From the NCBI GenBank assembly GCA_963733035.1, contig CAVTBU010000009.1, positions 192,001-256,000 on the forward strand: a DNA stretch of 64,000 nucleotides, written 5' to 3'. Positions 14,201 through 33,300 of this stretch are shown here, one piece after another. The stretch's first letter is position 1. Each line of letters begins with the position of its first letter. A program made the translations under genes and the position numbers. Below the pieces are notes generated by a model that was given only the letters and a program-made list of their open reading frames with translations, did not search any database and had not been told where the DNA came from. This DNA is from Pirellulales bacterium (GTDB lineage Bacteria > Planctomycetota > Planctomycetia > Pirellulales > PALSA-1355).

Positions 14201-14348
14201 CCACCGTGGCCGTCAGCAGGTGACGCTGTTCGAGGGCTTCGAGTCTGAGGCTGGAAAACCGGCTGGAAGCGAAATTGCGGGAACGTGCAAAACGCTGGGG
14301 GCGCGCAACAGCGCATGGTCCGCGCGGGACCGTTCGATAGGTCGACAT
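11280..14348 (-). CDS. Exported CSLREA / right-handed beta-helix (Pmp-like GGAI repeats) / choice-of-anchor Q protein
   Basis: LEALEQRHLL, VSLREAV, repeated NxAxxGGAI, LADNGGPTQTH…SPAINAG, DQRG…DIGAFE. Confidence 0.85.
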   Translation of the reverse strand: MSTYRTVPRGPCAVARPQRFARSRNFASSRFSSLRLEALEQRHLLTATVVEVTTTQDVIDPNDGLVSLREAVLEANASPNDYQIVLPAGTYTLTIQGANEDAALTGDLDILSSGSVTIVGAGADTTTIDASGLVDPSLGYGDRILDAHSGASLDVEGLTLTGGWSGRGGALADVDARVRVNNCVFVGNRAIIGGAISLIAPHLLPELTIEETTFSDNAAQDEGGAIYDDTGTRYSLLSMSDSTLTGNSSRFGGAVYASLASFSRVTLSNNSAESYGGAIQIGGGTINDCTITGNSAASGGGIYAAGSGELTINSSNISSNVAENGGAISISAGTTTINASTLSDNTATNRGGAIDNYSVFPQIAIAAVAVTDTILSGNTANNSGGGINNGGVSHGSVTVLERSTLTGNSAASGGGVFNMGNNSVLQIALSTISGNAATNGYGGGVNNLQAAQCQITSSTLSENTASASGGAIFNANQAVVTVADSTLSVNQAAVEGGGLYNAAGSIATLASSTLSGNAAGASGGGVYTGGATTQLTLSNTTVAVNQADADGDGFGTGGGLDLAGGTTMLTSTIIAGNRLTNAMPATASDIQLDGGQIDLASSFNLIADPETAGGLVYGTRGNIVGDGSGHALDVHAILDTNLADNGGPTQTHKLVDDSPAINAGDPAFDPNATDPPTPFDQRGAGYSRVVGRHVDIGAFESGATFQTVIAGRHVFYDNSTFNGNISGVGPFDVFAIATDKQALLPNGSLAGPQNVTSYSRGINGIMVDIAGSHPDITAADFIFRVGSNNAPDTWAAAPAPSAVVVLPGQGDGGSDRVEIVWPDGAIKNTYLEVIVAADAHTGLSSPDEFFFGNRIGDTLAGTPANYFVTNAADEIAVRTATQYRNLPITSNLDINRNGSLDDRFIVHTNAGVLPRIQISPPPAPLARPLGTSDALASKPSDDLRNAVAASLTVPAKSVTADAESPAPAVVLAKAAPLGAAQVDWALAADWSYAADGLDELFSTGDANEVDETALELLGDALT

Positions 14349-14614
14349 GGCTCTTCCTCTGTCCGTAGGAACGCGATAACGAAAATAAGACGCACTTCGC
14401 TCGGCCGGACTCTCGCGTTGCCCTCGCGAGCCTCTTCGTCCTGCCAACTGTCGACCCGATTTTCGTCCGCGTGGGCCACGCGAAAAATAAACGATCCAAA
14501 AGGAGGCGGCCCACACGCCACCCGTCAGAGTAAAGGAACCCGCTAGCTTTGTCCAGAGAATTCCGGGCAAAAAGTTCGGTGAGCCAAGCGATAGTGAACG
14601 CGACGATCAGACGC

Positions 14615-15039
14615 CTACGTCCACAGGTTCCGGTCGAGCGTGCGGTAGTTGATCGCCTCGCTGATGTGCTCGGGACGGATCGACTCGCTGGACTCGATGT
14701 CGGCGATGGTACGGGCGAGGCGCAGGATTTTGTCGTGCGCCCGGGCCGAAAGGCCGAGTTCGGTCATCGTGGCGCGAAGGAGATTCATACAGGGGTCGTC
14801 CAAGGGGCAGAACTGCCGAATCTGCCGGTGCGTCATGCGGCCGTTGTGACGGGTGCCAGTTCCGGCGAAGCGAGCTTGTTGCACTTCGCGGGCGGCTTCC
14901 ACGACCTCGCGCATCTGGGCGCTGGAGGTGCCCGGCGTTTTCGCCGAAAGTTCGCGGAAGGGAACGGCCGGCACTTCGATTTGGATGTCGATGCGGTCGA
15001 GCAGGGGGCCGGAAATCTTGGCCATGTAGCGTTCGACTT
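14615..15039 (-). pseudogene. comM: 3' part of comM (YifB family Mg-chelatase-like AAA+ helicase), interrupted by the element
   Basis: VERYMAKISGPLLDRIDIQIEV … LGLSARAHDKILRLARTIAD; joins in frame to 33281-34396. Confidence 0.95.
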
Positions 15040-15057
15040 ACGGAACCTTAGAAAACC
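15009..15057. other. Left attachment junction (comM arm + TT core + element arm ACGGAACCTTAGAAAACC)
   Basis: comM homology ends at 15039; the element arm is the inverted counterpart of 33263-33280. Confidence 0.88.
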
Positions 15058-15231
15058 TTACGCCGGAAATGATCGAAGCTTTAGGGGTCATTGATCGGGT
15101 GTTCGACGGCTCGGCTATCCCCCAGGAGAAGCCACCCAGCCCCATGCCTAAGGCAATCTAACCGTTTCCGCCGCATTCGGGGCCACGGAGGGCGCGGGTG
15201 CACCACCTACGCAACAGGGAGATTGACGACG

Positions 15232-16014
15232 ATGTGTCTAGTTGAATCAATCGACCGGGCAATTGAGTTTGTCCGTGAACATGAGCTGCTAATGACGGAG
15301 GACGATGTGGATGAGCTAATACGGATCGCGGGCAGGGTCGTCGAGTTGGCTTTCCGCAGCGGCCTTCATTATGTTCTGCCGGGCATCGACATGCGTTCGC
15401 TGGTTGAATATCCCAGCGTGTCGGAGCCTCCCGTTGTATTGTCCGCCCTCAACGTGCCGGGCGATTGGAGTCGTGATGTTCTTAACCTGGAGGGTGAAAC
15501 ACTTGAACGTGCGTTTCTGCCGTGCGTGCCGGACCGTTGGTACGAAGCAATGATGATTCTACGATCTCTGGCCTGCCGTGACGCTCCTGCGGAGGAGCCG
15601 AACCAGCCCCAACCCAAGAAGCCCAAGGCAAAGGGCATGGGCCGAGAGGAGGTATTCAAGCGACTGGTGGAGCTGTGGCAGCAGGGAGAGCCGTTCACCA
15701 CTTGTGAGGAAATGGCTGAGCGGTTTGGTTGTTCTGATACCACCGTCCACCGAGCAATCCAGCGCAGTGAGAAGCTAAAGGCTTGGGCTGCGAAAGGGCC
15801 GAAGCGTACCCAACGGCTCGATGACGTAGTGCTAGACCGGACGGCTCAGAGCCGGGAGCCCGCACCGGACGATGACGCCCAATTGCGAGAATTGATTGAA
15901 CAGGCCGAACCGTCTTTGCGAGCATTCTTACACACAGTGCCACCCGAGAAACTGCGGCAGATGTCGGCCGATGATTTGAAGCAGCTAGTAGTCAATCCTG
16001 AGTGCAGAGCCTAG
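15232..16014 (+). CDS. HTH DNA-binding protein (putative element regulator)
   Basis: TCEEMAERFGCSDTTVHRAIQR helix-turn-helix; GGGAG upstream of ATG 15232. Confidence 0.65.
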   Translation: MCLVESIDRAIEFVREHELLMTEDDVDELIRIAGRVVELAFRSGLHYVLPGIDMRSLVEYPSVSEPPVVLSALNVPGDWSRDVLNLEGETLERAFLPCVPDRWYEAMMILRSLACRDAPAEEPNQPQPKKPKAKGMGREEVFKRLVELWQQGEPFTTCEEMAERFGCSDTTVHRAIQRSEKLKAWAAKGPKRTQRLDDVVLDRTAQSREPAPDDDAQLRELIEQAEPSLRAFLHTVPPEKLRQMSADDLKQLVVNPECRA

Positions 16015-16021
16015 GCCCAGC

Positions 16022-16085
16022 AGAAACGTTTCTCAGGCATTTCTCCGCAAAAACACGGCATTTCTAGCAAAAACCGGAAACGTTT
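16022..16085. promoter_or_regulatory. Operator-like array: two AAACGTTT palindromes around two GGCATTTCT-N1-2-GCAAAAAC direct repeats
   Basis: AGAAACGTTTCT 16022-16033; repeats at 16036-16054 and 16057-16074; GAAACGTTT 16077-16085. Confidence 0.55.
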
Positions 16086-16133
16086 ACCACCTATAGAGGC
16101 CCGCGATTTTGGGCTGGAAAGGATTGGTGAACG

Positions 16134-16355
16134 ATGAACGACGGTACTGCTCCCCGGCTGCGTACGCCGGGCATTATCGCTGTGGAGTTAAAGGCTCCAC
16201 TCTCCCGAGTGCTCTACGTCTTACGCACTCGCCCCCACATTCGTCCGGCTGCCTACGCTGGCACGATCCGCCTCTACCGCGAAGACGCTGTGGCGATGGT
16301 CCGCCATGAGCTCAACGCGATTGACTCTAGAAAGGGGGGCCGAAGCGATGCCTAA
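16134..16355 (+). CDS. Small HTH protein, excisionase/AlpA-like
   Basis: 73 aa, TPGIIAVEL…RVLYVL…RLY pattern; overlaps the start of the helicase gene. Confidence 0.55.
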   Translation: MNDGTAPRLRTPGIIAVELKAPLSRVLYVLRTRPHIRPAAYAGTIRLYREDAVAMVRHELNAIDSRKGGRSDA

Positions 16356-17943
16356 GCGTGACGACTGCAGGAGGGAAGACCCTATTGCGAAGCGGCCCGA
16401 GTTCAAAAAACGCCTCAAAGAAGCTGAACTGGCATACCAGGTGCGTGACAAGAGGAGCATAGGTGAAGAGCTTACGCCAGAGGAAGAAGACATCTACCTG
16501 TTGGACGTTGCTCGACGTACGGAGCAAGCCCTATCCAAGAGAGATCCAAACGCCAAGTCACCGGCTCGTGCACCACTCCTCACGAGGCGGACGAAACACG
16601 ACTCAACCGATGAGCAAAAACTAGATCGGCTCCGACGTGAATGTGCGGAGTTTAACGGACCACCGACCCTTGGCCCGCACGGTGACCTGCGCACGATGGC
16701 CCAGGTGTTGGCTTTGCTTCAACATGCCACGCCATTGCGTGACGCGTTCCTGGAGGGAGTTGGTATTCCACCGTCCGCTCTCTCAGTCCGTGTTTGTGAC
16801 CGACTATCCCACGGGATTTTGGAGGATCTTGACCGCACGGAGGCGTCAGGAATCTGGGATATACCCTGGGAGAAGCTAGAGATTGATCGCCAGGAACGTC
16901 GTCCACGCCAAGGCATCAACACCCGTCGATTGTCGGACGTTTTGGCCCATGAAGTCGAATGGCAGTGGCCAGGCGTGACCGCCCTAGGAAAGTTGACCCT
17001 GTTCAGCGGCAATCCAGGCGTGGGTAAGACCTGGCTGGCGTTGGATATCATAGCCCGACTTACAACCGGTCGCCCTTTTCCGCTCCAGGCGAATCCGCCC
17101 AACGTTGACCGTAAATTTCCAAAGGGTGAATTACTTGTCGGCGGGTCAATCCGGCGCAATGCGTTGTTCATAAGTGCGGAAGACGCAGACGAAGATACCG
17201 TCAAGCCACGAATCGAGCTACTTGGTGGCGATTCGACGCGGATTCACACGTTGGACTTCATTTTTGAGAACCGCAATAGAAGAACCCTCTCGCTCGCGGA
17301 CCATATCAACTATTTAGACAAGTGGCTCTTTTCTGAGCCGATGGTTGAACTCGTGGTGATTGACCCGCTAACCGCGTTCCTGGGGAAAACAGACAGTCAC
17401 AAGAACGCGGACGTGCGAGCCGTCTTGGAGCCGTTATCGAAAGTGGCGGAAAAACGACGCGTAGCCATCATCGGCGTCAACCATCTCACCAAGGGAACGG
17501 AAGGATCAGCCGTACATCGCTCGATGGGCTCGATTGGCTTTATGGCTGCTGCCCGAGTCGCATGGCAAGTCACTGCCGATCCTGATGAGCCAGACCGTAG
17601 CCTAATGCTGCCCGTCAAGGTCAACATCGGGAAGACCCCACGGGGCTTAGCGTTTCGGCTCAGCGAAACGACCGGCATCGAGTGGGAACAGGAAAGCATT
17701 GATCTGACCGCTGACGAAGCCCTCAACGGACCACGCGAGAGCAAGCTTGACGACGCTAAGGACTTCTTGCGCAACCTGCTGCGAGAGGGGCCAATGCCTG
17801 CGACGGCGGTGGAGGACGCAGCCGCGAAGGCAAGAATCTTCGGATCGACACTCAAGACCGCCAAACGGCAACTCGGCATCAAGTCCGAAAAGAGCCCGGC
17901 ACCGAACGGCGGTTGGGAGTGGCGGCTACCGGAGCGTCGGTAA
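16348..17943 (+). CDS. AAA (RepA/AAA_25-type) replicative helicase of the element
   Basis: Walker A GNPGVGKT, ISAED, Walker B LVVIDPL, NHLTK, GSIGFMAAAR; RBS AAGGGGG before ATG 16348. Confidence 0.85.
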   Translation: MPKRDDCRREDPIAKRPEFKKRLKEAELAYQVRDKRSIGEELTPEEEDIYLLDVARRTEQALSKRDPNAKSPARAPLLTRRTKHDSTDEQKLDRLRRECAEFNGPPTLGPHGDLRTMAQVLALLQHATPLRDAFLEGVGIPPSALSVRVCDRLSHGILEDLDRTEASGIWDIPWEKLEIDRQERRPRQGINTRRLSDVLAHEVEWQWPGVTALGKLTLFSGNPGVGKTWLALDIIARLTTGRPFPLQANPPNVDRKFPKGELLVGGSIRRNALFISAEDADEDTVKPRIELLGGDSTRIHTLDFIFENRNRRTLSLADHINYLDKWLFSEPMVELVVIDPLTAFLGKTDSHKNADVRAVLEPLSKVAEKRRVAIIGVNHLTKGTEGSAVHRSMGSIGFMAAARVAWQVTADPDEPDRSLMLPVKVNIGKTPRGLAFRLSETTGIEWEQESIDLTADEALNGPRESKLDDAKDFLRNLLREGPMPATAVEDAAAKARIFGSTLKTAKRQLGIKSEKSPAPNGGWEWRLPERR

Positions 17944-17954
17944 TGCTATCCCGC

Positions 17955-18114
17955 GACCCCTTCACCCCCTTCGACTCCTTCGACAAATCTCCCACAAAAT
18001 TTGGGGGTAATCGAAGAAGGTGGTTTCACCCCCTTCGACTCCTTCAACTCACCAATTTTTGAAGGGGGTGAAGAAGGTGAAGGGGACGAAGGGGGTGAAG
18101 AAGACGAAGAAAGT
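17955..18114. repeat. Putative replication origin: convergent arrays of 9-bp iterons (ACCCCCTTC / GAAGGGGGT)
   Basis: Exact 21-bp repeat TTCACCCCCTTCGACTCCTTC at 17961-17981 and 18025-18045; six GAAG-led 9-mers in reverse orientation at 18061-18114; A/T runs between them; immediately after the helicase gene. Confidence 0.7.
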
Positions 18115-18226
18115 TACCCCCATCGCACACCCGGACTGACACCCTTGTTGCCTTCCCCCAGGAAGCAGTCGCTAGACGACGCTTGTGAAGGTTGCGAAGC
18201 AAACTGACCAACGGAGAAACACCGCG

Positions 18227-18445
18227 ATGACTGAACGACTCGCTAGGTACGAAGAGTTGCTGAAACGGGCTCGCCTAAATGTCCTGCTGCTACGGCGGGA
18301 GATTCTGCGAGTGGAGCGGGCGATGGGCAAAGGACTGCCCCCGCTCGACATAGAGCCTTGGCGTGTAGAGGTTTTGGACATGCGACGGATTGAGAAAGTG
18401 ATTCTGGGCCTAATCGAGTTGGAGAAAAACCGCACGCAGACTTGA
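18227..18445 (+). CDS. Small hypothetical coiled-coil protein
   Basis: GGAGA RBS, 72 aa MTERLARYEELL…. Confidence 0.55.
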   Translation: MTERLARYEELLKRARLNVLLLRREILRVERAMGKGLPPLDIEPWRVEVLDMRRIEKVILGLIELEKNRTQT

Positions 18446-18533
18446 CTTCCTGAATGGGGACATACGATTGTTATTAGCGTATAACCCACTTGGGTGGTTA
18501 GATATCCCCTCATTCATAGGAGAGACTAGCGAG

Positions 18534-19139
18534 ATGGCTATAGACTATTCAAAGTTGATTGGGAAGCGTTCAAAGTTGATCCCCATCGTCCCAACTTCGG
18601 ACCTGTACTTAGCGAACCTGGCAAGAGACTGCGCCGACGGGCACCGCTTCGCCAGAATCTTTAGGGATACATGGCGTCAGATTCCATTGGGGGATCGGCG
18701 GCGAATGGTGAAGCATTGGCACACCGATGAAAGAATGGATTCTGGCTGGTCCCACCCGCGTATATCGCGGAGGATGGAGCGGGAAAGATTTCCCATCTCG
18801 CGTTCTGATTACATTGCGAGTATCCAGCTAATTGCGGGCTGGAATAAAGAATATATCTACCCACACTATCTACCGGACGACGCCGAACATTGCGGTGCGT
18901 TTGTCACTGTCGCCGCAATGGGTCATAAGTTATGGTTCCACGCGCCATCGGTTGCACGGATGCCGGACAATGTTGTGGCGAACTTGATAGCCAAGGGGCT
19001 GGCTCATGTGTATCAGTGGGCGACAGAGCCGGAGCTGTTTGACGATCCAGATGACCCAGGCAACACGGAGTACCTTGAAGGGGACGCCAACCAGAAAGTT
19101 GAGAGTTGGGGCTTTGAACTGTACTCGATTGAGGAATAG
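18534..19139 (+). CDS. Hypothetical protein with degenerate zincin-like motif
   Basis: AGGAGA RBS; LIAKGLAHVYQ…EGDAN resembles HExxH…E with the first His and the Glu replaced. Confidence 0.55.
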   Translation: MAIDYSKLIGKRSKLIPIVPTSDLYLANLARDCADGHRFARIFRDTWRQIPLGDRRRMVKHWHTDERMDSGWSHPRISRRMERERFPISRSDYIASIQLIAGWNKEYIYPHYLPDDAEHCGAFVTVAAMGHKLWFHAPSVARMPDNVVANLIAKGLAHVYQWATEPELFDDPDDPGNTEYLEGDANQKVESWGFELYSIEE

Positions 19140-19165
19140 CTGCACTCCCGAGCTGGATGAATCGA

Positions 19166-19206
19166 CCATCTACAGAATCCAACAACCCACTACGCCTACC
19201 CCTAGC
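19166..19206 (+). repeat. 41-bp direct repeat, copy 1 (CCATCTACAGAATCCAACAACCCACTACGCCTACCCCTAGC)
   Basis: Identical to 26873-26913. Confidence 0.95.
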
Positions 19207-19261
19207 ACTCACGGCTGGCGAATCGCTTCGCTTTATCGTGTTGCAGTCAATGAAGTGCCTG

Positions 19262-20449
19262 TCAGTCTGCATCGCCAAACGCGAGCAGCTCACCGCCTTT
19301 GCTTAGAAACAGCAGTTTCCCATTGGTCATCAAACCTTCGATTCGCTCGCTATCGGAAGCACCGATCTTCCATTTCAATTCGCCGTTGGCTGCGTCTAGC
19401 CCGTAGAGCTGGCCGTACAAGGTGGCAACATATACCAACCCGCCACCGAGAAGAGGCGGATCATAAATCGGCGCACCATGACCTGGAACATAATCGCATT
19501 TGAATTTCCAGATCATCTTGCCAGTTTCTGCGTTGAGTCGATAGACGCTCCCGTTGAGGGATCCAAAAAATACAGCGTCGCCTTGCACGGCGGCAGCGGC
19601 TTCCACCTCGAAGCCGCAATGGAAATCCCATTTAACCAGGCCAGTTTCCCTGTCAAGGCAATACAAACGCCTATCCTTTGAACCGATATACACATACTTT
19701 TCAGTGACAACAGGATTGCCGTAAATCCAACCCTTGGTCTGAAAGGACCATTTTACCTGCGCCGTCTCGCAATTAATGGCAACGATTCGCGACTGATCAA
19801 AGATAGGCTGAAACAAGGTCTTTCCATCGGTGGCCGGCATCCTGGGCCTGGCTCCATCAGCGCCAATTCGGCCTCGCCTAGCATCGAAACCGGGCGGCGA
19901 CGGTGGTGCGTCCTTCAGCAAGTCGACAGTCCACTTGCAAACGCCAGACTTTGCATCAAATGCATAGACTAAGCCGTCTTCCGCCATGAAAACCAACAAA
20001 TCGCCGATCATCACCGGCACGAAACCTTGTGAGCCCGTCTCCCGTGTCCAAACCACGTTGCCGTTGGAGGTGTTAATCGCGACCACGTATTTCTCCGTCA
20101 AAAAGTACGCAACGTCGGCCATGACCAAAGATAATTTCAGTGGCGCTGCGTACGCTGGGCAGTTTGCATACCGTAGCAATGTTCCGTCAGAAGCTCGGCA
20201 TGAGCTCAGCTGCTGGCGATCCACCGAATAAAGGAGGTCGCCAGCAGGAATCACGTTCGTTCCATGCTGTCTCCAGACAACCTTTGGTTCGTGTTCCAAT
20301 TTCAGTCTCGAATCGCAATTCGTTCTGGCTTGGTCCACTTGCAAAATCGCATCCGCGCCATAAAGTAGCGCCCTCGCATCGAGAGTAAATGACAAGGCCA
20401 TGGCAAGAGCCACACTTGTGTAACGTGCGGGCCGCTTAGTGTTCAGCAT
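19262..20449 (-). CDS. PQQ-like (BamB-type) beta-propeller repeat protein, exported
   Basis: Repeated xxYAxDxxTGxxxW blades; signal-peptide-like N-terminus. Confidence 0.85.
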   Translation of the reverse strand: MLNTKRPARYTSVALAMALSFTLDARALLYGADAILQVDQARTNCDSRLKLEHEPKVVWRQHGTNVIPAGDLLYSVDRQQLSSCRASDGTLLRYANCPAYAAPLKLSLVMADVAYFLTEKYVVAINTSNGNVVWTRETGSQGFVPVMIGDLLVFMAEDGLVYAFDAKSGVCKWTVDLLKDAPPSPPGFDARRGRIGADGARPRMPATDGKTLFQPIFDQSRIVAINCETAQVKWSFQTKGWIYGNPVVTEKYVYIGSKDRRLYCLDRETGLVKWDFHCGFEVEAAAAVQGDAVFFGSLNGSVYRLNAETGKMIWKFKCDYVPGHGAPIYDPPLLGGGLVYVATLYGQLYGLDAANGELKWKIGASDSERIEGLMTNGKLLFLSKGGELLAFGDAD

Positions 20450-20643
20450 GACGATTTTCCCCAAGGTGATTAACGAGCCAAGCGAAGAGAGCTCAGCGAC
20501 AAAAGATCCTGGCAAAGATCACTATAGCGAAGGTGCGCCGAGCGGTAAGTGGGCTGCCTACCCTTGACCGCCAAGCTGCTCCCGAGCGGCAACACCACGG
20601 AGATCAGAAACAGCATTCCGCGGTCTTGCAAATCTCGGGACTC

Positions 20644-20662
20644 ACAACCCACTACGCCCACC
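20644..20662 (+). repeat. Partial third copy of the 41-bp repeat
   Basis: ACAACCCACTACGCCCACC vs ACAACCCACTACGCCTACC (18/19). Confidence 0.75.
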
Positions 20663-20700
20663 TCAATCCAGCTCCTCTCGCACGTTAGTTATAGGGCTCA

Positions 20701-20733
20701 GTAAGTCGAACGCTACATGGCCAAGATTTCCGG
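20701..20733 (+). repeat. 33-bp perfect inverted copy of the left att junction (comM fragment + TT core)
   Basis: GTAAGTCGAACGCTACATGGCCAAGATTTCCGG is the reverse complement of 15009-15041. Confidence 0.95.
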
Positions 20734-22299
20734 GGCGTTGGTGACAGGTTCCTGGTTTCGCATCCAGACGATGCCGCGCTCCAGTCGGTACTTGGACCGC
20801 TTGCCCCAGGGTCGCTTATCCGTGAAGATGTCCACGCGCGAGATTGACCCGCGGAAGAATTGCCGCAGTAGATGTGGATCGGCTTTCGTGGCAGCCTCCC
20901 TGAAGCGTCCAAACCACTCTAGAGCAGCTTCGACCCTCCTGTCTATGTCATCGCCCTTCGTGCGTGAATTGGACGCACAGGACGCCAGACGGGCTTCTGC
21001 AGCCACACGTTGTCGACGCAATCCTCTGATCTGCTCTTGTACGTCGTCAAGCAGATCGGCGTCGACTTCCACCAGACGTTGCTTGGCCTTGGCCAGCTTC
21101 GCCTCGATGGCATCAAGTTCACGACGCAGTGCCTGCGGCTCGGGTTCCCGTTTCAGTTCCTTCAGTTGGCGTCTCATCGAGGATGCCAACTGCGCCAGGG
21201 TCTCGGGGTTGTAGTACCGTTCCTGCAGGCCATCCAGCACGCCGGCAACGATTTCATTCTGGCGTAGGGTGTTGCGGTCGCAGTACGTCTTCCCGTGCTG
21301 GCGGTATCCGTAGCAGGTGTAGTGGTGCTTGCCGTTCGACAAATCGCCGATCATCTTGTGCCCACACTTGCCACAGCGCAGCACTCCCGAGAGTACGAAA
21401 CCACCGCCGCTTGGGTGCGGTGTGGAGCAGTTCCTGCGCTCGGCCAACTGCTGCTGCACCCGGTCGAACGTATCCCGGTCGATAATCGCCTCATGGTGAT
21501 CCTCGAAGACGATCCAGTCGGCCGCGTTGTTCCGTTGCTCGGGGCGGCCCTTCCGCTTGTATTTCGACATGCAGCGCATGTTCCAGATGTAGTCTCCCAC
21601 GTAGACCCGGTTGCGGAGCATTCCAGCGATTCCGTTCGCTGTCCAGCCCTTCCCCTTGGGTGATGGTCGGCCTGAGTTGTTCAGCTCGTCGGCCAGCCCG
21701 CGCAGGCTCTTGGCCGCTAGGTACTCGGTGAAGAGCCAACGAACGAGCGCGACATCCTCTGTTGGCCCCAGCAAGAGTCGCTTATTGACCGCGACGTACC
21801 CCAACGCCGGCTTGCCGGATGCCCACAGGCCCTGCTCTGCGAGGCTAGTCATGCCGCGCGTGACATTCCTCGACAGATCGGTCAGGTATTGGTTCTTAGC
21901 CTCCTGCTGAATGCCGTACAGTACTCGACCAGCGAAGTCCCCCCAATCGATGAACCCTTGGGCGACGGTCGCGAGATGTACGCCAGCCCTGCGCAGTGGA
22001 AAGATCCAGTACCCAGCCTCGAGGGAATCAAATCGCCCGAACCGATCAATATCCCAACACAGGATCGCTTGGAACTTCCGGTGTTGTCCGTCTCTGACCA
22101 TCGCTTGGAATTCACGCCGCTTGTCGGTCGCATCGCCGCTGATTCCCTCGTCGATGTATTCACGAACGATGTGATAGCCGTTGGCCTTGGCGTACTTCTC
22201 GACTGCCGTCCGTTGGTCAGGAATCGAGGTTTCCTGTCGGTCGGTGCTCATGCGGTAGTAGGCCACCGCAGGGATGTAGTTTTCATTCGTCGCAATCAC
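20713..22299 (-). CDS. Large serine recombinase #1 (catalytic + recombinase + zinc-ribbon domains)
   Basis: YYRMSTDRQ (catalytic Ser), DEGISG, DRFGR, LSGVLRCGKCG, YTC…C, coiled coil; GGAGG RBS with GTG start. Confidence 0.93.
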   Translation of the reverse strand: MIATNENYIPAVAYYRMSTDRQETSIPDQRTAVEKYAKANGYHIVREYIDEGISGDATDKRREFQAMVRDGQHRKFQAILCWDIDRFGRFDSLEAGYWIFPLRRAGVHLATVAQGFIDWGDFAGRVLYGIQQEAKNQYLTDLSRNVTRGMTSLAEQGLWASGKPALGYVAVNKRLLLGPTEDVALVRWLFTEYLAAKSLRGLADELNNSGRPSPKGKGWTANGIAGMLRNRVYVGDYIWNMRCMSKYKRKGRPEQRNNAADWIVFEDHHEAIIDRDTFDRVQQQLAERRNCSTPHPSGGGFVLSGVLRCGKCGHKMIGDLSNGKHHYTCYGYRQHGKTYCDRNTLRQNEIVAGVLDGLQERYYNPETLAQLASSMRRQLKELKREPEPQALRRELDAIEAKLAKAKQRLVEVDADLLDDVQEQIRGLRRQRVAAEARLASCASNSRTKGDDIDRRVEAALEWFGRFREAATKADPHLLRQFFRGSISRVDIFTDKRPWGKRSKYRLERGIVWMRNQEPVTNAPEILAM

Positions 22300-22381
22300 A
22301 ATCCCGAGCCTCCATGGTTGAGATCAACAGTTGACATTGAGAAAACCAGATCGGCGACAATTCGTCAAGGAAACGCCACCG

Positions 22382-23047
22382 CTAGACCTCTCCCAATCTG
22401 TGGATTGAGTAATCCTCGACCTTATCCCAAAGGATGGTCACTACGCCGTTTTGCGTCATCACCGCAATGCCCGGATCGTTGTAGAGCACGTACCCGGTCG
22501 GCCCCGCGTCGTTATGACCGATGATAACCTTCCACTGCTGGGGAATCGGAACTTTGATGCCTTCAATGCGATGGAGTTCAATAAACCGTCCACTGTTTCG
22601 CAATTCGATGCACGCCTCAGAGAATTCCTCGAGTTGCGATACAGCCGACTTGGAGAGTTGCTGGTTCACAACTGTTTCTACTAGTCCAAGCGTTAATGCG
22701 CGACTCACGACGGACGTGAACGATCCAATAAAGAAGAGCCCGCTGCTGAAACCCTTGAACTTGGCTTCGATTTGCCGCTGGATGCGTTCAGCGGCACGTA
22801 CAAAGCCAACATCGAACATGAGGATTGCAGAACAGACGTGCTCACGACCGGAAACCATTCGTATTCTGGCCACGATGGGGTCCGGTGGGACGGGCTCAGC
22901 GAGTGGTGGCTCCATGCTACCGCCGACCATTTCGTCGGTAAGGCGGACAGGCTGTTTGCACGACGGACATGACACGACCCGGCCGACTAGTCTCTGGTCA
23001 TACTTAATGCGTCGGCCACACATGGGACAATTCGTTGTGGCACTCAT
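22382..23047 (-). CDS. Hypothetical protein with N-terminal zinc ribbon
   Basis: CPMC…CPSC, Pro-rich linker, hydrophobic segment. Confidence 0.6.
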   Translation of the reverse strand: MSATTNCPMCGRRIKYDQRLVGRVVSCPSCKQPVRLTDEMVGGSMEPPLAEPVPPDPIVARIRMVSGREHVCSAILMFDVGFVRAAERIQRQIEAKFKGFSSGLFFIGSFTSVVSRALTLGLVETVVNQQLSKSAVSQLEEFSEACIELRNSGRFIELHRIEGIKVPIPQQWKVIIGHNDAGPTGYVLYNDPGIAVMTQNGVVTILWDKVEDYSIHRLGEV

Positions 23048-23123
23048 GCACGGCAGCCCTCGCGGCTTGGATTTGGAAATATATCCCCGCCCCCAGTTCG
23101 CCCAGGGGCGGGGTCAGGGACGC

Positions 23124-23384
23124 TCAAGTCTCGTATCCGCCTATCTCCTGCCCAAGACCATGTCCTGCAGGATCGGCCATGATGTCCGCAAGGGTTGCGG
23201 CCCAGCCGCCGTCATCACCGCAACCGCGATTGTAGCCTTCGATGTACGCTTGGGCTTCGAGCGCGTTGTCCGCGATGTGGAGCAACGTCGGGGCAACATC
23301 CGGCCAGCACACAAAGATGGGCACGGGTGCCTCGCGACGGTTCGGGTCACCAAGGGTCAGATCGTCATCGTTCCAACGGACCAT
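23124..23384 (-). CDS. Small hypothetical protein
   Basis: Strong AAGGAGGT RBS before ATG 23384; 86 aa. Confidence 0.55.
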   Translation of the reverse strand: MVRWNDDDLTLGDPNRREAPVPIFVCWPDVAPTLLHIADNALEAQAYIEGYNRGCGDDGGWAATLADIMADPAGHGLGQEIGGYET

Positions 23385-23649
23385 GGCAGCACCTCCTTGC
23401 GCCGCGAGGAGCGCAGCAAAACAGCCACAGGCCCGTTGATCGTTGTCTGGGTGCCGAGACACCCTGCGCAGCCTCACGGTATGCGCACCGGTCAACGGGC
23501 TTGCGGCCATTCTGTCGACTTGACGGCATGGTATTCGACTCTCGGGTTTAGACGCCCACGAATCTAACAATCTGGTCAGCGCGAGACAAGTTAACATAAA
23601 ATGCCGCGAACGTTGTTGGAACCATCCATCGAAGTAGGATAATCCCAAA

Positions 23650-24264
23650 ATGGTGCTTTCGACTGTCGATTGGCTATCCAGTGAATGGGTAATGGTGGCG
23701 ATTGCCCTAATTCAGTTGGCCGCAACTTATTTTGCTTACAAGGTCGCGGGCGAGGCCGCATCCGCAGCCAAGGACTCAGTTACGATCGGCCACCTCACAG
23801 TGGAACAGATGCAACTCGAACGGCGTGCTTGGCTGACTTGCGAAACACCTCAAATCGAGCCATTTGAAATTGGTAAGTCGGTGCGATCCACGGTCAGCAT
23901 CAAAAATGACGGAAACACCCCCGCAGTTGTCAATCGGCAAATCGCTCAGGTGCTGGTGACGGATGCTGGTGGTGATGCGCTCGCAGAAATGGTCAAGACG
24001 GTTGAGCGTGAAATAGAACAATCAATGGCGCGAGAAGATGTCGTGGCACCCAATGCTAAGGTGGTTTTCAAAGGTGATCACGGCCTCCATTTAACGAAGG
24101 AACAGATCGATGCCATTTCTGTCGGCCAATGCGCCGTATACATACTTGTCCGCGTCAAGTACTGCGACATGTTCGGTGTTCGCCATATCACCCAGGGTTG
24201 TTATGTGTACACCCCTAGTGTGAAGCAGGTGTGGGGTTACCATGAGTTCAATTTCATGACTTAG
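23650..24264 (+). CDS. Hypothetical membrane-anchored cargo protein
   Basis: N-terminal TM helix then ERRAWL…IKNDGNTPA, beta-rich domain. Confidence 0.65.
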   Translation: MVLSTVDWLSSEWVMVAIALIQLAATYFAYKVAGEAASAAKDSVTIGHLTVEQMQLERRAWLTCETPQIEPFEIGKSVRSTVSIKNDGNTPAVVNRQIAQVLVTDAGGDALAEMVKTVEREIEQSMAREDVVAPNAKVVFKGDHGLHLTKEQIDAISVGQCAVYILVRVKYCDMFGVRHITQGCYVYTPSVKQVWGYHEFNFMT

Positions 24265-24305
24265 CGTCGGTCACGGCAAGCAACCTCAATTGCATTTGGA
24301 GCGAT

Positions 24306-24908
24306 ATGGTGCCACTACCCGATGCGGAATTCTGGCTGAAGACCCTGACTCCTTGGGCTGCGATTGTCGGCGCCGTTACAGGCGCCATAGGCCTAGGGCT
24401 CGGTATCTACAACCTGGTCCTGGCGCGAAAGTCACACAGAGTTAAGGTAGTGATTGAATGCAGTCTAGGCGGGAGCAATGTAGGGAAGGCGGAAGGAGGG
24501 GAGCCGATTCCGCAAGACCGCTGGCTCACGATCAAGATTATCAACTGCAGCTACTTTCCGATTACAGTGGACCGCGTAGGCCTCTCCATTCGGAAGCGGC
24601 GCTTGGCTAGGAGTAAGTTGTTTACGGTTCCACTCCGCAAGGATGTCTTTACCAAGCAATTGCGAATCGAATCTCGAGACGCAACTGAAGTCAAGTTATA
24701 CCTGGGCCGCCGAAGTCGGTTTGAGAAGTCGCGGTCTTTCGAGTATCTCAGCCAGCACACCGAAGAGCAAATTGTCGGTGCATTCGCGCACTTACCCACA
24801 GGTCAGACTTTCGTCGGTGGACGTGAGGATGCGCGAGCGGCATTGCGAGAGATGCGTCAAGTGTTCGAGTATTTCACCGAACATCAACTTCACCACACGA
24901 AGCAGTAG
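24306..24908 (+). CDS. Hypothetical membrane-anchored cargo protein
   Basis: GGAG RBS; N-terminal TM helix WAAIVGAVTGAIGLGLGIYNL; IKIINCSYFPITV. Confidence 0.65.
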   Translation: MVPLPDAEFWLKTLTPWAAIVGAVTGAIGLGLGIYNLVLARKSHRVKVVIECSLGGSNVGKAEGGEPIPQDRWLTIKIINCSYFPITVDRVGLSIRKRRLARSKLFTVPLRKDVFTKQLRIESRDATEVKLYLGRRSRFEKSRSFEYLSQHTEEQIVGAFAHLPTGQTFVGGREDARAALREMRQVFEYFTEHQLHHTKQ

Positions 24909-24912
24909 TCCA

Positions 24913-25830
24913 TCACGAGAACGGCCCCGGGTTCAGCTGGTTCAAGTCCGCGTATGCGAACCGGTTGAACGCCAAGTAGATCGCTGGCTGGCCCTCAGGC
25001 AGGATGGTGCCATCCTCATCGAGGTTGACCGTCATCGGCTCGCCCGTCTTCCGGTCGATGACGCGCTCTGCAGGCAGGCCGGGAAACGGCCGTGCGTAGT
25101 TGCCGTAGTTCAGCGCGGTACCCTTCCAGGTGTTCTCTGCAAACTGCCCCGGGTTGTCCGGGTCTTCCCTCAGCCGGAACCGAATCCGATAGGTGACGTG
25201 CTCGTAGATATCGCCGTTCACGTCCTCCTCGTCGGTTTCGATGTCATACAGCCACGCAGTACCGACCGGTGCGCCGTAGAACTCGGTCGCGCTGATCCGG
25301 TTGTGGAACCCAAGGAACACCGTAGGGTCGAAGGGAAACAGCTCGTAGCGGGTGACCTCGCGAATGTAGTCCCCTGAGGGCCCAGTCACCACAAGCGGCT
25401 CGCCGGCCGCAGTAGCGATGGAGTCTCCGGTCAAGACATCACGGGGCAGCGCCTCGTCGACCGTCTCACACCGCCACTTGCATATCGGCCGCCGGTAGAG
25501 TGGGTTCTCATCCTCGTTCGCGTTGGTGTAGCTGATGTCGTTCGTCAGCTTGGCGGTAACATCCCACAGCAGGCCTGGCAACCCGGTAATCGGGTTGCGG
25601 ATGGGACTCACCTCGCGGGCATCGTGATCCATCACCACCATGCCACGGTACAGCGTGCCGATCTGGGGAACACCGACTGCCCCGCAGATCTGATCGTAGT
25701 CCTCGGTGAGGCTCGAGACGACCTGAAAGGTGCGTGAGGCTTCGCGCTGCTTGTACCACAGCTTGTCCTTCTTCACCAACGCGATCTTGGCCGATTCGGT
25801 TTCGGCTTTCTCGCCAAGGCTAACCGCCAT
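24913..25830 (-). CDS. Hypothetical phage protein (possibly structural or tail-associated)
   Basis: 305 aa, host-like codon usage, TGATG-coupled to the upstream CSD gene and downstream of the capsid fragment; function inferred from context only. Confidence 0.5.
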   Translation of the reverse strand: MAVSLGEKAETESAKIALVKKDKLWYKQREASRTFQVVSSLTEDYDQICGAVGVPQIGTLYRGMVVMDHDAREVSPIRNPITGLPGLLWDVTAKLTNDISYTNANEDENPLYRRPICKWRCETVDEALPRDVLTGDSIATAAGEPLVVTGPSGDYIREVTRYELFPFDPTVFLGFHNRISATEFYGAPVGTAWLYDIETDEEDVNGDIYEHVTYRIRFRLREDPDNPGQFAENTWKGTALNYGNYARPFPGLPAERVIDRKTGEPMTVNLDEDGTILPEGQPAIYLAFNRFAYADLNQLNPGPFS

Positions 25831-26036
25831 CAGTCGAGCACCTCCACTCGCTCAGCACGCGGGCCACGGCCGGTGTCCTTGCCCAGCTCGAACTCGACGC
25901 GCTTACCGACGAGGTCGCTATTGAGTCTGCACCGGACGAGCGCGGAATGATGAAAGAATACGTCCTTGCTGATGTCCGCGCAGACGATGAAACCGAAACC
26001 GTACAGGTCTTTCACTGCCGAAACCAAACCCGTCAC
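25830..26036 (-). CDS. Cold-shock domain (OB-fold) protein
   Basis: YGFGFI (RNP1), DVFFHHSAL (RNP2), VEFE…GPRA; GGAGG RBS with GTG at 26036. Confidence 0.8.
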   Translation of the reverse strand: MTGLVSAVKDLYGFGFIVCADISKDVFFHHSALVRCRLNSDLVGKRVEFELGKDTGRGPRAERVEVLD

Positions 26037-26154
26037 CGCGATGGCCCTCCGATAGTGTTTCGTGGCGGGCCGCAGTCGCCGAACTACGGACCCGCCGCAC
26101 GGCCGAGGCAACTCAATCAAGCCGTGATTTCCTTGTTAGTTTGCTACGCCTGGT

Positions 26155-26866
26155 TCAGCTGGCGTCACCGCTCGACATGATGGCGAACTGCTCATCGCCC
26201 TGTGCCACGCCGAAGTCGTGGTAGCCACGCCATTGCATGCCCAGGGTGTTGAAGTCGGTCTGGCTGGACTCGATGGTCGGAACCGCGCGGCCGTTCAGGA
26301 GGGCGACCACGATTGCAGAACCAATTGAAGGTTCGGACATCAGGAACCACACAGTGCTGCTCTGGTTGCTGATTCCGCTGCCGTCCGGCTTCTTGATGCC
26401 GGTCACGTCCAGGTACTTGCTCTTCACGGGACGGTAGCGGCCTTGGTAGATGTTCTCGGTGCCGATCTGCGATCCGTTCGCGTCGACCGACAGTAGGGTC
26501 GTCTGTCGATACAGATTCGTCGCGGTGACGATCTGGGCAGTGCCCGTGAGCAGGATGGCTGGATCGGCCATAATCGGCTTTCCTCCTGCACCGGTGAACT
26601 TGCCGAAGGCGATTTCCCCGGCCTCCAGGCCCCCGATCGACAGCACATCATCGATCAGGTTGTTGTTGCCGACCGAGAAGAAACTGCCCGTGTTCGACAG
26701 TAGGGTGTCGTACACCTCCGATTCGATGGCCCAAACAGCACCATCAGCCAGACCGTTGAGCACCTGACGGAAGGCGTCCAGGTCGTCGTTGATGATGTGC
26801 CGGCGGTCGAGCGAAAGCATCCGCCCGCGGGTCTCCGCCTGCACGGTACGCTTCGAGTCCGACAGC
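26155..26866 (-). pseudogene. C-terminal fragment of a phage major capsid protein (Mu gpT-like), 5' truncated
   Basis: TRGRMLSLDRRHIINDDLDAF…LNGRAVPTIE…LGMQWRGYHDFGV; the frame is closed by TAG just upstream, next to the 41-bp repeat. Confidence 0.75.
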
Positions 26867-26872
26867 TATTCT

Positions 26873-26913
26873 CCATCTACAGAATCCAACAACCCACTAC
26901 GCCTACCCCTAGC
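26873..26913 (+). repeat. 41-bp direct repeat, copy 2
   Basis: Identical to 19166-19206; about 200 bp upstream of the resolvase. Confidence 0.95.
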
Positions 26914-27039
26914 CGAAACCGCAGCTGATCCTCGCCCGGATCGTAAAGCGTCAATGTCGCTGCGCTAGCCCCGTCGATTCCCGAGCGTTCTGCCCCTAGC
27001 TGCCCCCTCTGACCGTAACGTTTCGGCTCTAGTCGATAA

Positions 27040-27070
27040 TTTACTACGTGTGTGGTAGAGCGTAGACTAA
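27040..27070 (+). promoter_or_regulatory. Putative sigma70 promoter (TTTACT-N17-TAGACT) with operator-like spacer
   Basis: 24/31 identical to 27770-27800. Confidence 0.6.
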
Positions 27071-27114
27071 GGGTAACGGTACGTATGTTCACTACGATAC
27101 AGGAGGGGCGAACC

Positions 27115-27714
27115 ATGAAGCATATTGCGATCTACTTGCGGGTATCCACGACCGGACAGGACACGAAAAGCCAGCTACCCGACCTGGAACGATGGGCTGC
27201 GGCTCAATCCGATCCGGTCAAGTTCTACAGCGACAAGGCGAGCGGTAAGACGATGGACCGGCCGGGCTGGGCGAAGCTAGAGGCAGCGATTCGACAGGGC
27301 CGCGTTAAGGCTGTCGTAGTGTGGAGGATTGATCGACTCGGCCGCACCGCCAAAGGGCTTACTGCGCTGTTCGACGAACTACGCGAGCGGAAGATCAACC
27401 TAGTCTCGCTACGCGATGGCCTGGACCTATCGACCCCGGCCGGGCGGTTGATGGCGAACGTGCTTGCGTCTGTGGCTCAGTATGAAACCGAAGTGCGGGG
27501 CGAGCGAGTAGCAGCCGGGCAAGCCAAAGCACGGTCGCAGGGCAAGCGTTGGGGCGGCTCGCAACCGGGAGTGCGGAAGAAGGTCACCGATACGCAGCTC
27601 AAGGCTATCCACTCGATGCGTGCGAACGGCGAGCGTATCACCCATATCGCCACCGCTCTGGGGCTCTCTCGGCCCACGATCTATGCCGTCCTACGCGAGC
27701 CCGCAGCAGCGTAA
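27115..27714 (+). CDS. Small serine recombinase (resolvase/invertase family) with C-terminal HTH
   Basis: YLRVST, DKASG, RPG, DRLGR, DLSTPAGRLM, AQYE, LGLSRPTIY; AGGAGG RBS. Confidence 0.93.
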   Translation: MKHIAIYLRVSTTGQDTKSQLPDLERWAAAQSDPVKFYSDKASGKTMDRPGWAKLEAAIRQGRVKAVVVWRIDRLGRTAKGLTALFDELRERKINLVSLRDGLDLSTPAGRLMANVLASVAQYETEVRGERVAAGQAKARSQGKRWGGSQPGVRKKVTDTQLKAIHSMRANGERITHIATALGLSRPTIYAVLREPAAA

Positions 27715-27769
27715 AGTGAGGGCCGAGTGGAGCCTACGAAATACCCCGCAGATACTGGGCAGATAACGG

Positions 27770-27800
27770 TTTACTACAAGTGTGGTAGTAGCTAGGCTAA
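27770..27800 (+). promoter_or_regulatory. Putative sigma70 promoter (TTTACT-N17-TAGGCT) for the terminase operon
   Basis: Near-duplicate of 27040-27070. Confidence 0.6.
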
Positions 27801-27824
27801 TAGTAAGCGATGGGGGTATAAGCA

Positions 27825-28220
27825 ATGCCCAGAGTCAGCAGGGGCACCCGAACCAACCAAAGCCATAAGGGCCGAGTCTTGCCTCCCAAGTACACAGCCG
27901 GGTTTCTCACAACGCTGGACGGCCGCACTGAGTTGGCCCGTGGTCTACGCGAGCGGTTTGACTCGATTGTGGCCGATCTGGGCGGACCCGGAGAGCTATC
28001 GCAAATCAAGGCATCGCTGGTTGAACGGTTTGTCTGGCTGGAAGCATCGTTGATGAGCATCGAAGCAGCGATGGCCGAGACGACCGACCCGAAGCAGTAT
28101 GCCGACCTAGTTGCCCGCTGGACTCAGGCTTGCAACACGCTGCTAGGCATCGGTAAGTCGCTCGGCATTGACCGCAAGCTTGGCTCGGCGCCTTGGCTGG
28201 CGGAGGCTAAGCAAACATGA
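27825..28220 (+). CDS. Putative terminase small subunit
   Basis: 131 aa helical protein (DGRT…DLGG…LGIDR), ATGA-coupled to the terminase large subunit; call rests mainly on position. Confidence 0.55.
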   Translation: MPRVSRGTRTNQSHKGRVLPPKYTAGFLTTLDGRTELARGLRERFDSIVADLGGPGELSQIKASLVERFVWLEASLMSIEAAMAETTDPKQYADLVARWTQACNTLLGIGKSLGIDRKLGSAPWLAEAKQT

Positions 28221-29845
28221 TCGACGCCCAACAGTACCAGCTCTATGCCTCCAATCCGGCTGCCTTCCGCGATGATCTCAACGTAGAGGTAAGCGGCTCG
28301 GTCTGTCGCTTCGGTGATATCCAGGACGACTGGCAGCGTCGTGACTTTGAATCCCTAGACCCGGCTTGGCTGCGCTGTACAGGCAGGGACCACGGCGACA
28401 ACGCAATACGGACACGCGGCTACCTGGAACGCGGACGCGGACACTCCAAGACAACCGACCTAGCGATGATGGCCATCTGGGCCTTGGCGTTCGCCACTCG
28501 CTCACTGCGGGGCTACTGCTTCGCTGCCGACAAGGATCAAGCCGCGTTGCTCCACGATGCGATGCGTACGCTCGTGCGCTTGAATCCCTGGCTGGCTGAG
28601 ATCCTAGAAGTTCAGCGGGAACAGGTTGTAAACGTCGCACAAGACCATCGGGGCAACGGGAGCCGATTAACGATCTTCACCAGTGACGTCGGATCGTCCT
28701 ACGGTATCCTCCCGGACTTCATCATTGCCGACGAACTAACGCACTGGGCTGGTGATGGCTCGCTCTGGTACTCGATCATCAGCTCTGCCGCCAAGCAGAC
28801 GAATTGCGTGCTGGTCGTTATCTCCAACGCGGGTTTCGTCGACTCATGGCAGTGGAACGTCCGGGAAGCGGCTCGCAACGATCCTAGCTGGATCTTCTCT
28901 CGGCTCGATGGGCCAAGGGCTTCTTGGCTGACCAAAGATCGACTAGCCGAACAACGGCGCATGCTTCCGCCCATAGCGTATGACCGGCTGTGGGGAAACC
29001 GTTGGAGTTCAGGCGGTGGCGATGCCTTAACGGAGGAGGATATCCAGGCCGCATTCGACAACAACCTGCGGCCGATGACCGGTCGTGAATCAGATTGGGT
29101 ATTCGTAGCGGGACTGGATTTAGGGCTCAAGCGTGACGGCTCGGCCGTGGTTGTACTGGCGGCACCGGTCAACGGTCGCAACGGCGGTAGGATTCGCCTA
29201 GCTCATCATCAACTCTGGCGTCCTCAGGATTCAGGCGGCAAGGTCAAGCTGACGGAAATCGAAGACCATATCAAAAAGTTGGATCGGCGGTTTAACCTGC
29301 GATGCGTTGGCTTCGATCCATGGCAAGCCGAACACATGGCCCAACGCCTGGAAGTCCATTCCCGGCACCGTAGCCGCAGCTCTCGCTTTCGCTCGATAGA
29401 TGGGCCCTGGATGCGGGAGGTACCGCCCACAGGCGGCAACCTTCGCACAATCGCCAACCTAACCATCGAGACGTTCACGGATCGTCGGTTAATGCTCTTC
29501 GACTGTCCGCCGTTGGAGCGTGACCTACGCAAGCTGCGAGCGGAAGAGAAGAGCTACGGCGTTCGCCTTACCAGCCCACGCGATGAACATGGCCACGGCG
29601 ATAGCTTCACAGCCCTTGCCAATGCCTTGCTGCTGGCCCATGAGATAGCCGGTGAAAAGGTAATCACGCTCCAGGCTTGGGGCAGCGGGATGCCGTACGA
29701 CGATGGCGATGAGGAAGACGACCGGCACGCGATTGACGACTACCTGGAAGAAATGGAGTACCTGGAGAGCTTGCCTGATGGACCAGAGCGAGTGATTCGA
29801 GGCATCGAACACTGGGAGAACAACACGAATGACCCACTACTTTGA
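28217..29845 (+). CDS. Terminase large subunit
   Basis: Walker A RGRGHSKTT, AADKDQA, Walker B FIIADE, ISNAG coupling motif, nuclease AGLDLG…FDPW…HGD. Confidence 0.85.
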   Translation: MIDAQQYQLYASNPAAFRDDLNVEVSGSVCRFGDIQDDWQRRDFESLDPAWLRCTGRDHGDNAIRTRGYLERGRGHSKTTDLAMMAIWALAFATRSLRGYCFAADKDQAALLHDAMRTLVRLNPWLAEILEVQREQVVNVAQDHRGNGSRLTIFTSDVGSSYGILPDFIIADELTHWAGDGSLWYSIISSAAKQTNCVLVVISNAGFVDSWQWNVREAARNDPSWIFSRLDGPRASWLTKDRLAEQRRMLPPIAYDRLWGNRWSSGGGDALTEEDIQAAFDNNLRPMTGRESDWVFVAGLDLGLKRDGSAVVVLAAPVNGRNGGRIRLAHHQLWRPQDSGGKVKLTEIEDHIKKLDRRFNLRCVGFDPWQAEHMAQRLEVHSRHRSRSSRFRSIDGPWMREVPPTGGNLRTIANLTIETFTDRRLMLFDCPPLERDLRKLRAEEKSYGVRLTSPRDEHGHGDSFTALANALLLAHEIAGEKVITLQAWGSGMPYDDGDEEDDRHAIDDYLEEMEYLESLPDGPERVIRGIEHWENNTNDPLL

Positions 29846-30311: not shown

Positions 30312-30315
30312 AGGC

Positions 30316-31149: not shown

Positions 31150-31207
31150 ACACGAACACAGGCGGCAAGTCAGAGCGGGAGTTGTTCCCTGACTCGCTCC
31201 TTCGCCG

Positions 31208-31518: not shown

Positions 31519-31520
31519 CC

Positions 31521-33284: not shown

Positions 33285-33300
33285 GGTAACGTGCAGTGGC
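33263..33300. other. Right attachment junction (element arm GGTTTTATCGTGTTCAGC + TT + comM arm)
   Basis: comM homology begins at ~33280; the arm is the inverted counterpart of 15040-15057. Confidence 0.88.

Follow-up and report, generated by a model that had tools for sequence, protein, structure and literature searches.

We analyzed a 64,000-nucleotide stretch of a Pirellulales bacterium genome (GenBank assembly GCA_963733035.1, contig CAVTBU010000009.1, positions 192,001 to 256,000; hereafter the window, whose coordinates are used throughout) in which the competence gene comM, encoded on the minus strand, is interrupted by a phage-like island of ~18.2 kb (15040-33282). The island carries a large serine recombinase, integrase 2, and contains at 20689-20748 a further short piece of comM that is inverted relative to the chromosomal gene and fused to the 3′ end of another large serine recombinase, recombinase 1. 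We propose, with a probability of roughly 0.7, that this internal site records, as a molecular fossil, a time when comM was doubly occupied by elements of two recombinase lineages that filled neighboring target positions in one gene copy, and that it serves neither as a second live attachment site nor as an element's own attachment site (attP).

The internal comM junction

The resident gene is split into a 5′ part (33283-34447, minus strand; Pfam Mg_chelatase, E 9.2e-80) that ends ...CHCTLPQ and a 3′ part (14615-15036, minus strand; Mg_chelatase_C, E 2.7e-32) that encodes the C-terminal ~140 aa and starts VERYMAKISGPLLDRID at 15036, the Pfam domains of ComM being Mg_chelatase, ChlI and Mg_chelatase_C. 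The DNA between the two parts has a lower G+C content than its surroundings. A repeat search pairs the left edge of the island with its interior through an inverted repeat of 45 nt (15009-15053 and 20689-20733, 91% complementary, arms 5635 nt apart), within which 15009-15041 and 20701-20733 are perfectly complementary over 33 nt. This perfect inverted copy had been reported in a first-pass annotation of the window, and direct reading of the letters confirms it. The outer copy (15009-15041) is the left junction of the island and consists of 29 nt of comM, the core TT and AC. The comM part codes for V E R Y M A K I S (G), with which the 3′ part of the interrupted gene begins, and occurs exactly twice in the window, once per strand, with 0 mismatches; 0 of 100 dinucleotide-preserving shuffles held two matches, even with three mismatches allowed, and a 20-nt piece of it has only these two copies in the whole 6.65-Mb genome.

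Read along the plus strand, the internal site begins with a half-site of the integrase 2 family (the internal arm, arm_b′, 20689-20702) and the integrase 2-type core region AAG (20703-20705), a trinucleotide common to the left, right and internal junctions (15037-39 and 33280-82 on the other strand). These are followed by a 29-nt comM spacer (20705-20733), which is in sense on the plus strand and hence inverted relative to the resident gene, and by the integrated-state end of a recombinase 1 element (20730-20748, minus strand), formed by a crossover zone CCGG in the Ser-Gly codons of KISG and a recombinase-proximal arm. Homology to comM stops at 20733, and the 3′ end of recombinase 1 enters from 20734 onward. 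From this boundary of recombinase 1 homology at CCGG (15009-15012 and 20730-20733) to the integrase 2 core (15038-39 and 20703-04) we measured 26-30 bp, in agreement with the earlier estimate that the recombinase 1 site lies about 28 bp along comM from that of integrase 2.

The arm beyond the core belongs to the same family as the arms that integrase 2 uses. In core-anchored manual counts, the internal arm matches the outer arm (arm_a, 15040-15053, plus strand), which is the left-junction element half-site cognate to integrase 2, at 10/14 positions, exactly as the first-pass annotation had stated, and it matches the integrase-proximal arm of the window at 10/14. When compared in the same way with a related element in genome G476, it matches the integrase-proximal arm at 12/14 positions and the distal arm at 8/14; by our own estimate, the binomial chance of a 12/14 match is ~3e-6 for one anchored comparison. 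The outer arm and the integrase-proximal arm (33263-33280) are themselves symmetric at 12/18 positions by manual count. With its AAG core, an element-type arm (10-12/14 to family arms) and a 29-nt host half-site, the internal site fits the hybrid make-up of the junctions that flank an integrated element (attL and attR).

The spacer is of local origin. All 29 of its 29 positions are identical to the resident comM, and the same positions in 11 family genomes carry 2 mismatches in the same-genus genome G487 and 5-9 in the ten others. Because of this identity, the pair of elements would have formed in the present lineage or in a conspecific, unless the copy was later homogenized. A DNA search of the family with the whole island matched 30 of 32 other genomes, essentially over comM alone, and found no relative of 19207-26872 or of the internal junction.

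Two recombinase lineages at neighboring positions in comM

Recombinase 1 (20713-22299, minus strand) comprises 528 aa and is an intact member of the large serine recombinases, with Resolvase (E 1.5e-25, residues 11-157), Recombinase (E 1.2e-26, residues 181-288) and Zn_ribbon_recom (E 4.8e-12, residues 303-358) domains, each above the Pfam curated cut-off, and with the sequence YYRMSTDRQ, which we take to be the motif holding the catalytic serine. The protein ends ...NAPEILAM, its stop codon lies at 20713-20715, and its last six codons and stop come from the antisense comM piece, so that the translation bears out the earlier proposal that recombinase 1 borrows PEILAM and its stop from the host gene. 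Integrase 2 (31521-33284, plus strand, 587 aa) has the same three Pfam domains and a TGA stop (33282-33284) that straddles the core at the right junction. With only 32% identity between them, the two proteins represent two lineages. When the island is excised as a circle in silico, the open reading frame (ORF) of integrase 2 extends across the core into the left arm by 40 codons and stops at 15159-15161 (627 versus 587 aa), and integration therefore exchanges the C terminus of the integrase.

We searched an order-level sample of 400 genomes for relatives of both proteins, counted at E <= 1e-70 for recombinase 1 (12 genomes) and at E <= 1e-60 for integrase 2 (4 genomes), and examined their loci, including 1.5-kb flanks, with tblastn of both comM halves. 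The four closest recombinase 1 loci with flanks (L030, 66% identity; L056 in genome G452, 62%; L057 in G751, 42%; L058 in G747, 40%) all have the layout seen at the internal site. In each, the recombinase runs antisense into the 5′ part of comM, which is continuous through ..PQ(I/V)ERYMxKISG and breaks after KISG or KISGP, and in 4/4 the stop codon lies inside comM-derived sequence; the sequence past the break follows the comM of the respective host over more than 1 kb. The homologue at L030, a metagenome contig, ends ...NAPDILAM, after which antisense comM is continuous through ...CHCTLPQIERYMAKISG and breaks there. The 11.4-kb element in G452 allowed both junctions to be read; they have 5 nt in common inside the Ser-Gly codons, and the distal arm does not resemble comM but nearly mirrors the recombinase-proximal arm. 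The recombinase 1 lineage therefore integrates inside the Ser-Gly codons of KISG, in line with the position foreseen in the first-pass annotation. Besides recombinase 1, the island in the window and the G452 element have a cold-shock gene alone in common (42% identity).

Among the 12 order-level relatives of recombinase 1, three have the same layout, one has the opposite polarity, one uses another comM site, and the other seven have no comM in their flanks. The locus of opposite polarity (L059, G723) has a recombinase that runs in sense into ...GPLMDRID and thus occupies the same comM site, and at the different site (L063, G507) a recombinase 1-related gene faces comM at around residue 230. 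This third insertion position (residue ~230, equivalent to ~33739 in the window) falls in the stretch ...TIAA(S/A)G, immediately ahead of the Walker A motif, and insertions of ~12.8 kb are found there in the family genomes G457 (contig C87) and G673 (C1), with the gene in G473 being split at the same place across contigs C24 and C30. Three further recombinase 1 homologues (P0087, P0090 and P0098, 39-41% identity) are annotated as fusions to DprA (PF02481) or to Mg_chelatase_C. Their sequences suggest readthrough of the ORF into dprA or into sense comM, and hence that the clade may use other competence-gene targets and polarities.

Relatives of integrase 2 mark the adjacent position. In G476 (L081/L085, 54% identity) the integrase runs into antisense comM at the Q|V position, where the gene part ends ..SGPQ, in the same layout as in the window, and the far arm of this 14.4-kb element adjoins IERYMGKISGPLLDR. 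In G546 (L084, 50% identity, apparently frameshifted near its end) the integrase-proximal arm is joined through AAG to VERYMSKISGPLLDR in sense, so that the insertion occupies the same comM position as integrase 2 with the opposite polarity. The other two of the four relatives have no comM in their flanks. Judged from the sequences at L059 and L084, the polarity of the core appears to have been reversed during the evolution of each recombinase lineage. Two contigs of G487 also touch this site: C5 has its start precisely at the integrase 2-type core in comM, and C24 passes through the intact site and ends 116 nt on (L089, L090), a pattern to be expected if occupied and empty comM alleles coexisted in the sample.

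Together, these junctions uphold two inferences drawn from the window alone, namely that homologues of recombinase 1 adjoin comM at ISG|P, as seen in 4/4 of the closest loci, and that two integrase lineages target neighboring sites in comM and both borrow host stop codons, as supported by the same four relatives, by L081 at Q|V and by the low identity of the two proteins. Searches further afield returned little. Distant relatives of recombinase 1 in genome contigs reach 30% identity or less and come from other phyla, viral contigs held two recombinase 1 loci at 24-25% identity and none of integrase 2, and 0 of 400 other genomes in a phylum-level sample gave a match at E <= 1e-60.

Origin of the internal site

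In the model that we favor, an element of the recombinase 1 lineage (element type E1) cuts comM within the Ser-Gly codons of KISG, and an element of the integrase 2 lineage (E2) cuts between the Gln and Val codons just upstream, with the two cuts 26-30 bp apart. Each crossover leaves the other element a full-length half-site of ~27-29 bp, so that both sites of one comM copy can be filled together. The internal site would be the remnant between such a back-to-back pair, comprising the integrated end of E1, a ~29-bp comM spacer, the E2 core and the half-site of an E2 relative. Because the internal arm differs from the outer arm at 4/14 positions, this partner would be a different member of the family (E2b). 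The block bearing the seam would later have been joined into the E2 element now residing in comM, where it lies inverted relative to the chromosomal gene and is bounded by rearrangement breakpoints, namely 41-nt repeats (R) and the truncated end of a capsid gene at one R copy. Without its other junction E1 would be unable to excise itself, and would probably now move, if at all, as cargo of integrase 2.

What remains is a relic and not an intact tandem array, since the window offers no second recombinase 1-type arm (a search matched only the known site, with a chance expectation of 0.26), no further comM fragment in the repeat search, and no gene for an E2b integrase, there being only one gene of the integrase 2 family in the island. 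Translations of the DNA to the left of the internal arm (20400-20760) were considered as a remnant of such a gene and rejected; similarity is limited to the last ~8 codons, SHVSYRAQ against SVTFYRAR in G476, and therefore reflects the half-site itself.

The block boundaries point to how the seam may have come to lie inside the island. R copy 1 (19166-19206) and R copy 2 (26873-26913), both on the plus strand, are identical over 41 nt and bound the block 19207-26872 as direct repeats, and a diverged copy, R′ (20628-20668, plus strand), retains 63% identity and a 19-nt core and ends 20 nt from the internal arm. These three copies, all in the same orientation, are the only ones in the genome, and they flank a PQQ gene and the 6.2-kb block that holds the relic. 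The capsid gene that ends at R copy 2 (26155-26844, minus strand; Phage_capsid_4, profile positions 74-250 of 262) is truncated at its 5′ end, with an open frame of 236 aa compared to 401 aa in its G546 homologue, and this truncation is a rearrangement breakpoint. The arrangement suggests that the block was inserted into, or recombined with, the integrase 2 element at R, which may itself serve as a site of recombination or mark where a cassette-like insertion took place. Across the 400 order genomes, R gave only single matches with 1-2 mismatches, about as many as a reversed control pattern. One R copy lies ~140 nt upstream of a small serine recombinase gene of the resolvase/invertase type (27052-27714, plus strand; Resolvase, E 2.6e-40, and HTH_7), which is 83% identical to its homologue in a related module of same-genus G487.

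Orientation is a difficulty for a history of double occupancy. The first-pass annotation had suggested that the fragment may be a relic of a tandem island array, and its anatomy of recombinase 1 end, spacer and integrase 2 core and arm agrees with that suggestion; the inversion relative to the resident comM does not, and calls for at least one further rearrangement or transfer. A relic formed in place was rejected for its wrong orientation. An intramolecular inversion between attP and the host site (attB) was likewise rejected as the origin; it explains the internal and right junctions and leaves the 29 nt and better-matching arm of the left junction without a source. The occurrence of both polarities in both lineages (L059, L084) offers a way out, in that the seam could be collinear with the E2 backbone and yet inverted relative to comM, and, by analogy, a capture of flanking DNA resembling specialized transduction would leave exactly such an internal hybrid site.

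Several other observations also weigh against this history. Every route that we can conceive needs at least two unobserved steps. Tandem pairs were not seen among extant elements: comM is continuous across the other site in 6/6 occupied loci (L030, L056, L057, L058, L081/L085 and L084), and 0/400 order genomes hold both recombinase families at the thresholds used. The seven of 12 recombinase 1 relatives and two of four integrase 2 relatives with no comM in their 1.5-kb flanks imply that the lineages are not exclusively specific for comM. Scores do not divide the internal arm between a proximal origin (12/14 and 10/14) and a distal one (10/14 and 8/14), and no body of an E2b element can be delimited. 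The intact recombinase 1 ORF fits a recent event but fits continued function too, and the structure is known from one assembly.

We weighed this history against three alternatives. The internal site could be the working attL-type partner of an active inversion switch that toggles the arrangement of genes or the C terminus of the integrase, either because integrase 2, helped by a directionality factor, uses it together with the right junction to turn round 20703-33281 (12.6 kb), or because RecA or the integrase flips 15042-20700 (5.7 kb) between the inverted copies. Its composition is that of the left junction (element half-site, AAG and full 29-nt comM half-site), it is inverted relative to both outer junctions, both large recombinase ORFs are intact, and a perfect match of 33 nt is close to the shortest that homologous recombination requires. 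We nevertheless regard a switch as unlikely. The half-site departs from the cognate arm at 4/14 positions, and wild-type large serine integrases are known to pair attL with attR only when given a directionality factor and not to pair attL with attL. An inversion that uses the right junction would moreover create attP-like and attB-like sites that integrase alone should recombine back at once, and no functional benefit is visible. The intact recombinase 1 gene would also be expected if the internal site were the attP of a live nested recombinase 1 element whose arm is identical to comM by chance, and the site does adjoin the 3′ end of the gene, where this family keeps its attachment site. However, identity at 29/29 positions between attP and attB arms is not how sites of large serine integrases are known to be built, the distal arm in G452 nearly mirrors the recombinase-proximal arm and is unlike comM, 4/4 relatives continue as their own host's comM for more than 1 kb past the break, and the comM-like stretch in the window ends exactly at the E2 core and gives way to an E2-type arm. 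We give this possibility almost no credence.

A chimeric assembly, in which strain variants with a recombinase 1 element in comM and with an integrase 2 island were joined, is very improbable in our judgment. Short repeats of this kind are able to mislead assemblers, the assembly (10 contigs, 92% complete, 2.9% contamination) may derive from a metagenome, and the contigs of G487 illustrate that the locus can break assemblies. A join through the shared 33 nt should, however, continue as the exact outer arm or as comM 5′ sequence, whereas the internal site continues as a third sequence, an E2-family half-site that matches the G476 arm at 12/14 positions and departs from the outer arm at 4/14. 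The anomaly also persists after the segment between the inverted copies is flipped, and the site is interior to a contig of ~344 kb. Double occupancy followed by internalization of the seam is the history that we retain for the internal site, and today the site would be inactive.

Relation to known systems and features of the island

Lambda dgal-type transducing phages, which use a tyrosine integrase, retain a host-core-phage hybrid junction inside the element after aberrant excision, and the internal site resembles this hybrid attachment site, although the analogy extends to the route only. In phage WO, one report describes a large serine recombinase, sr1WO, that integrates into the Wolbachia magnesium chelatase gene, with gene halves flanking the prophage, and rearranged WO prophages whose fragments each keep part of the chelatase gene attached (PMC9203015). 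The window resembles WO, as described there, in that a gene of the Mg-chelatase/ComM type is the target of a large serine recombinase encoded on an element with phage-like content; it differs in the host phylum and in having two lineages ~28 bp apart, with a 29-nt spacer trapped between different elements. The passages of two further papers that concern competence genes present comM as a recurrent target of mobile elements across bacteria and report that divergent integrases convergently use two distinct sites in comFA (PMC4774983, PMC12378983). The comM and comFA cases named in those passages are not from Planctomycetota, and the same passages describe no fossil of two sites being occupied at once.

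Accretion of cis-mobilizable, integrative conjugative and integrative mobilizable elements offers the closest parallel in island biology. There, successive site-specific integrations build composite islands, decayed members ride a functional neighbor, and internal hybrid attachment sites remain at the seams (PMC5704250). The window likewise holds a composite island, a decayed member and an internal hybrid seam; classical accretion, in the form outlined there, uses one shared attachment site in direct orientation, whereas here two recombinases use adjacent sites, and the element that survives holds the seam in inverted orientation. Narrow literature searches on comM insertions found no description of the present system, which may be published elsewhere. 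As a well-documented variation on known island biology, the case reveals no new mechanism; what is new is the use by two lineages of sites less than 30 bp apart and the preservation, internalization and inversion of the seam.

At the sequence level, the window and its relatives prove that two distinct large serine recombinase lineages evolved targets less than 30 bp apart in one competence gene, and the internal site is the only trace found here of both comM sites filled together. Targeting of competence genes by mobile elements is thereby extended to the present bacterial group, which the source names of homologous proteins assign to Planctomycetota and in which at least three comM positions are used. 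The natural junctions of several genomes define attB, core and half-sites for two uncharacterized integrase families and provide raw material for integrase tools, and the locus is a worked example of how internal attachment-site scars in composite islands record their history. A bolder interpretation, which we think unlikely, is that the paired comM sites act as a docking system in which elements stack and fuse, that a recombinase 1 element short of one end travels with its comM spacer as cargo of an integrase 2 element, that integrase 2 still recognizes the hybrid site and so, governed by a directionality factor, operates a 12.6-kb inversion switch, and that a Planctomycetota clade targets comM at three or more positions and in either polarity, and probably also dprA. 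If true, this would amount to a systematic attack on competence genes in Planctomycetota, a phylum in which, to our knowledge, natural transformation is undescribed.

The remaining genes of the island fall into strand-coherent parts, with those at 19262-26844 mostly on the minus strand and the other 10.5 kb wholly on the plus strand. The left part (15091-19139, plus strand) encodes a helix-turn-helix protein, an AAA_25 replication-type ATPase and a 223-aa ORF, and just 3′ of the ATPase gene, at 17950-18110, direct and inverted repeats of 22-33 nt have the appearance of an iteron-type replication origin. The PQQ gene, of the BamB-like beta-propeller type (19262-20515, minus strand; PQQ_2, E 3.7e-36), lies between R copy 1 and R′, and the cold-shock-domain gene is at 25830-26120 (minus strand). 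A phage-like module at 28217-31149 (plus strand) encodes a large terminase, a 160-aa ORF and a DUF2213 protein. Outside the island and directly downstream of the comM 3′ part, an ORF of 1096 aa with repeats of the Chlamydia polymorphic membrane protein (PMP) type occupies 11280-14570 on the minus strand.

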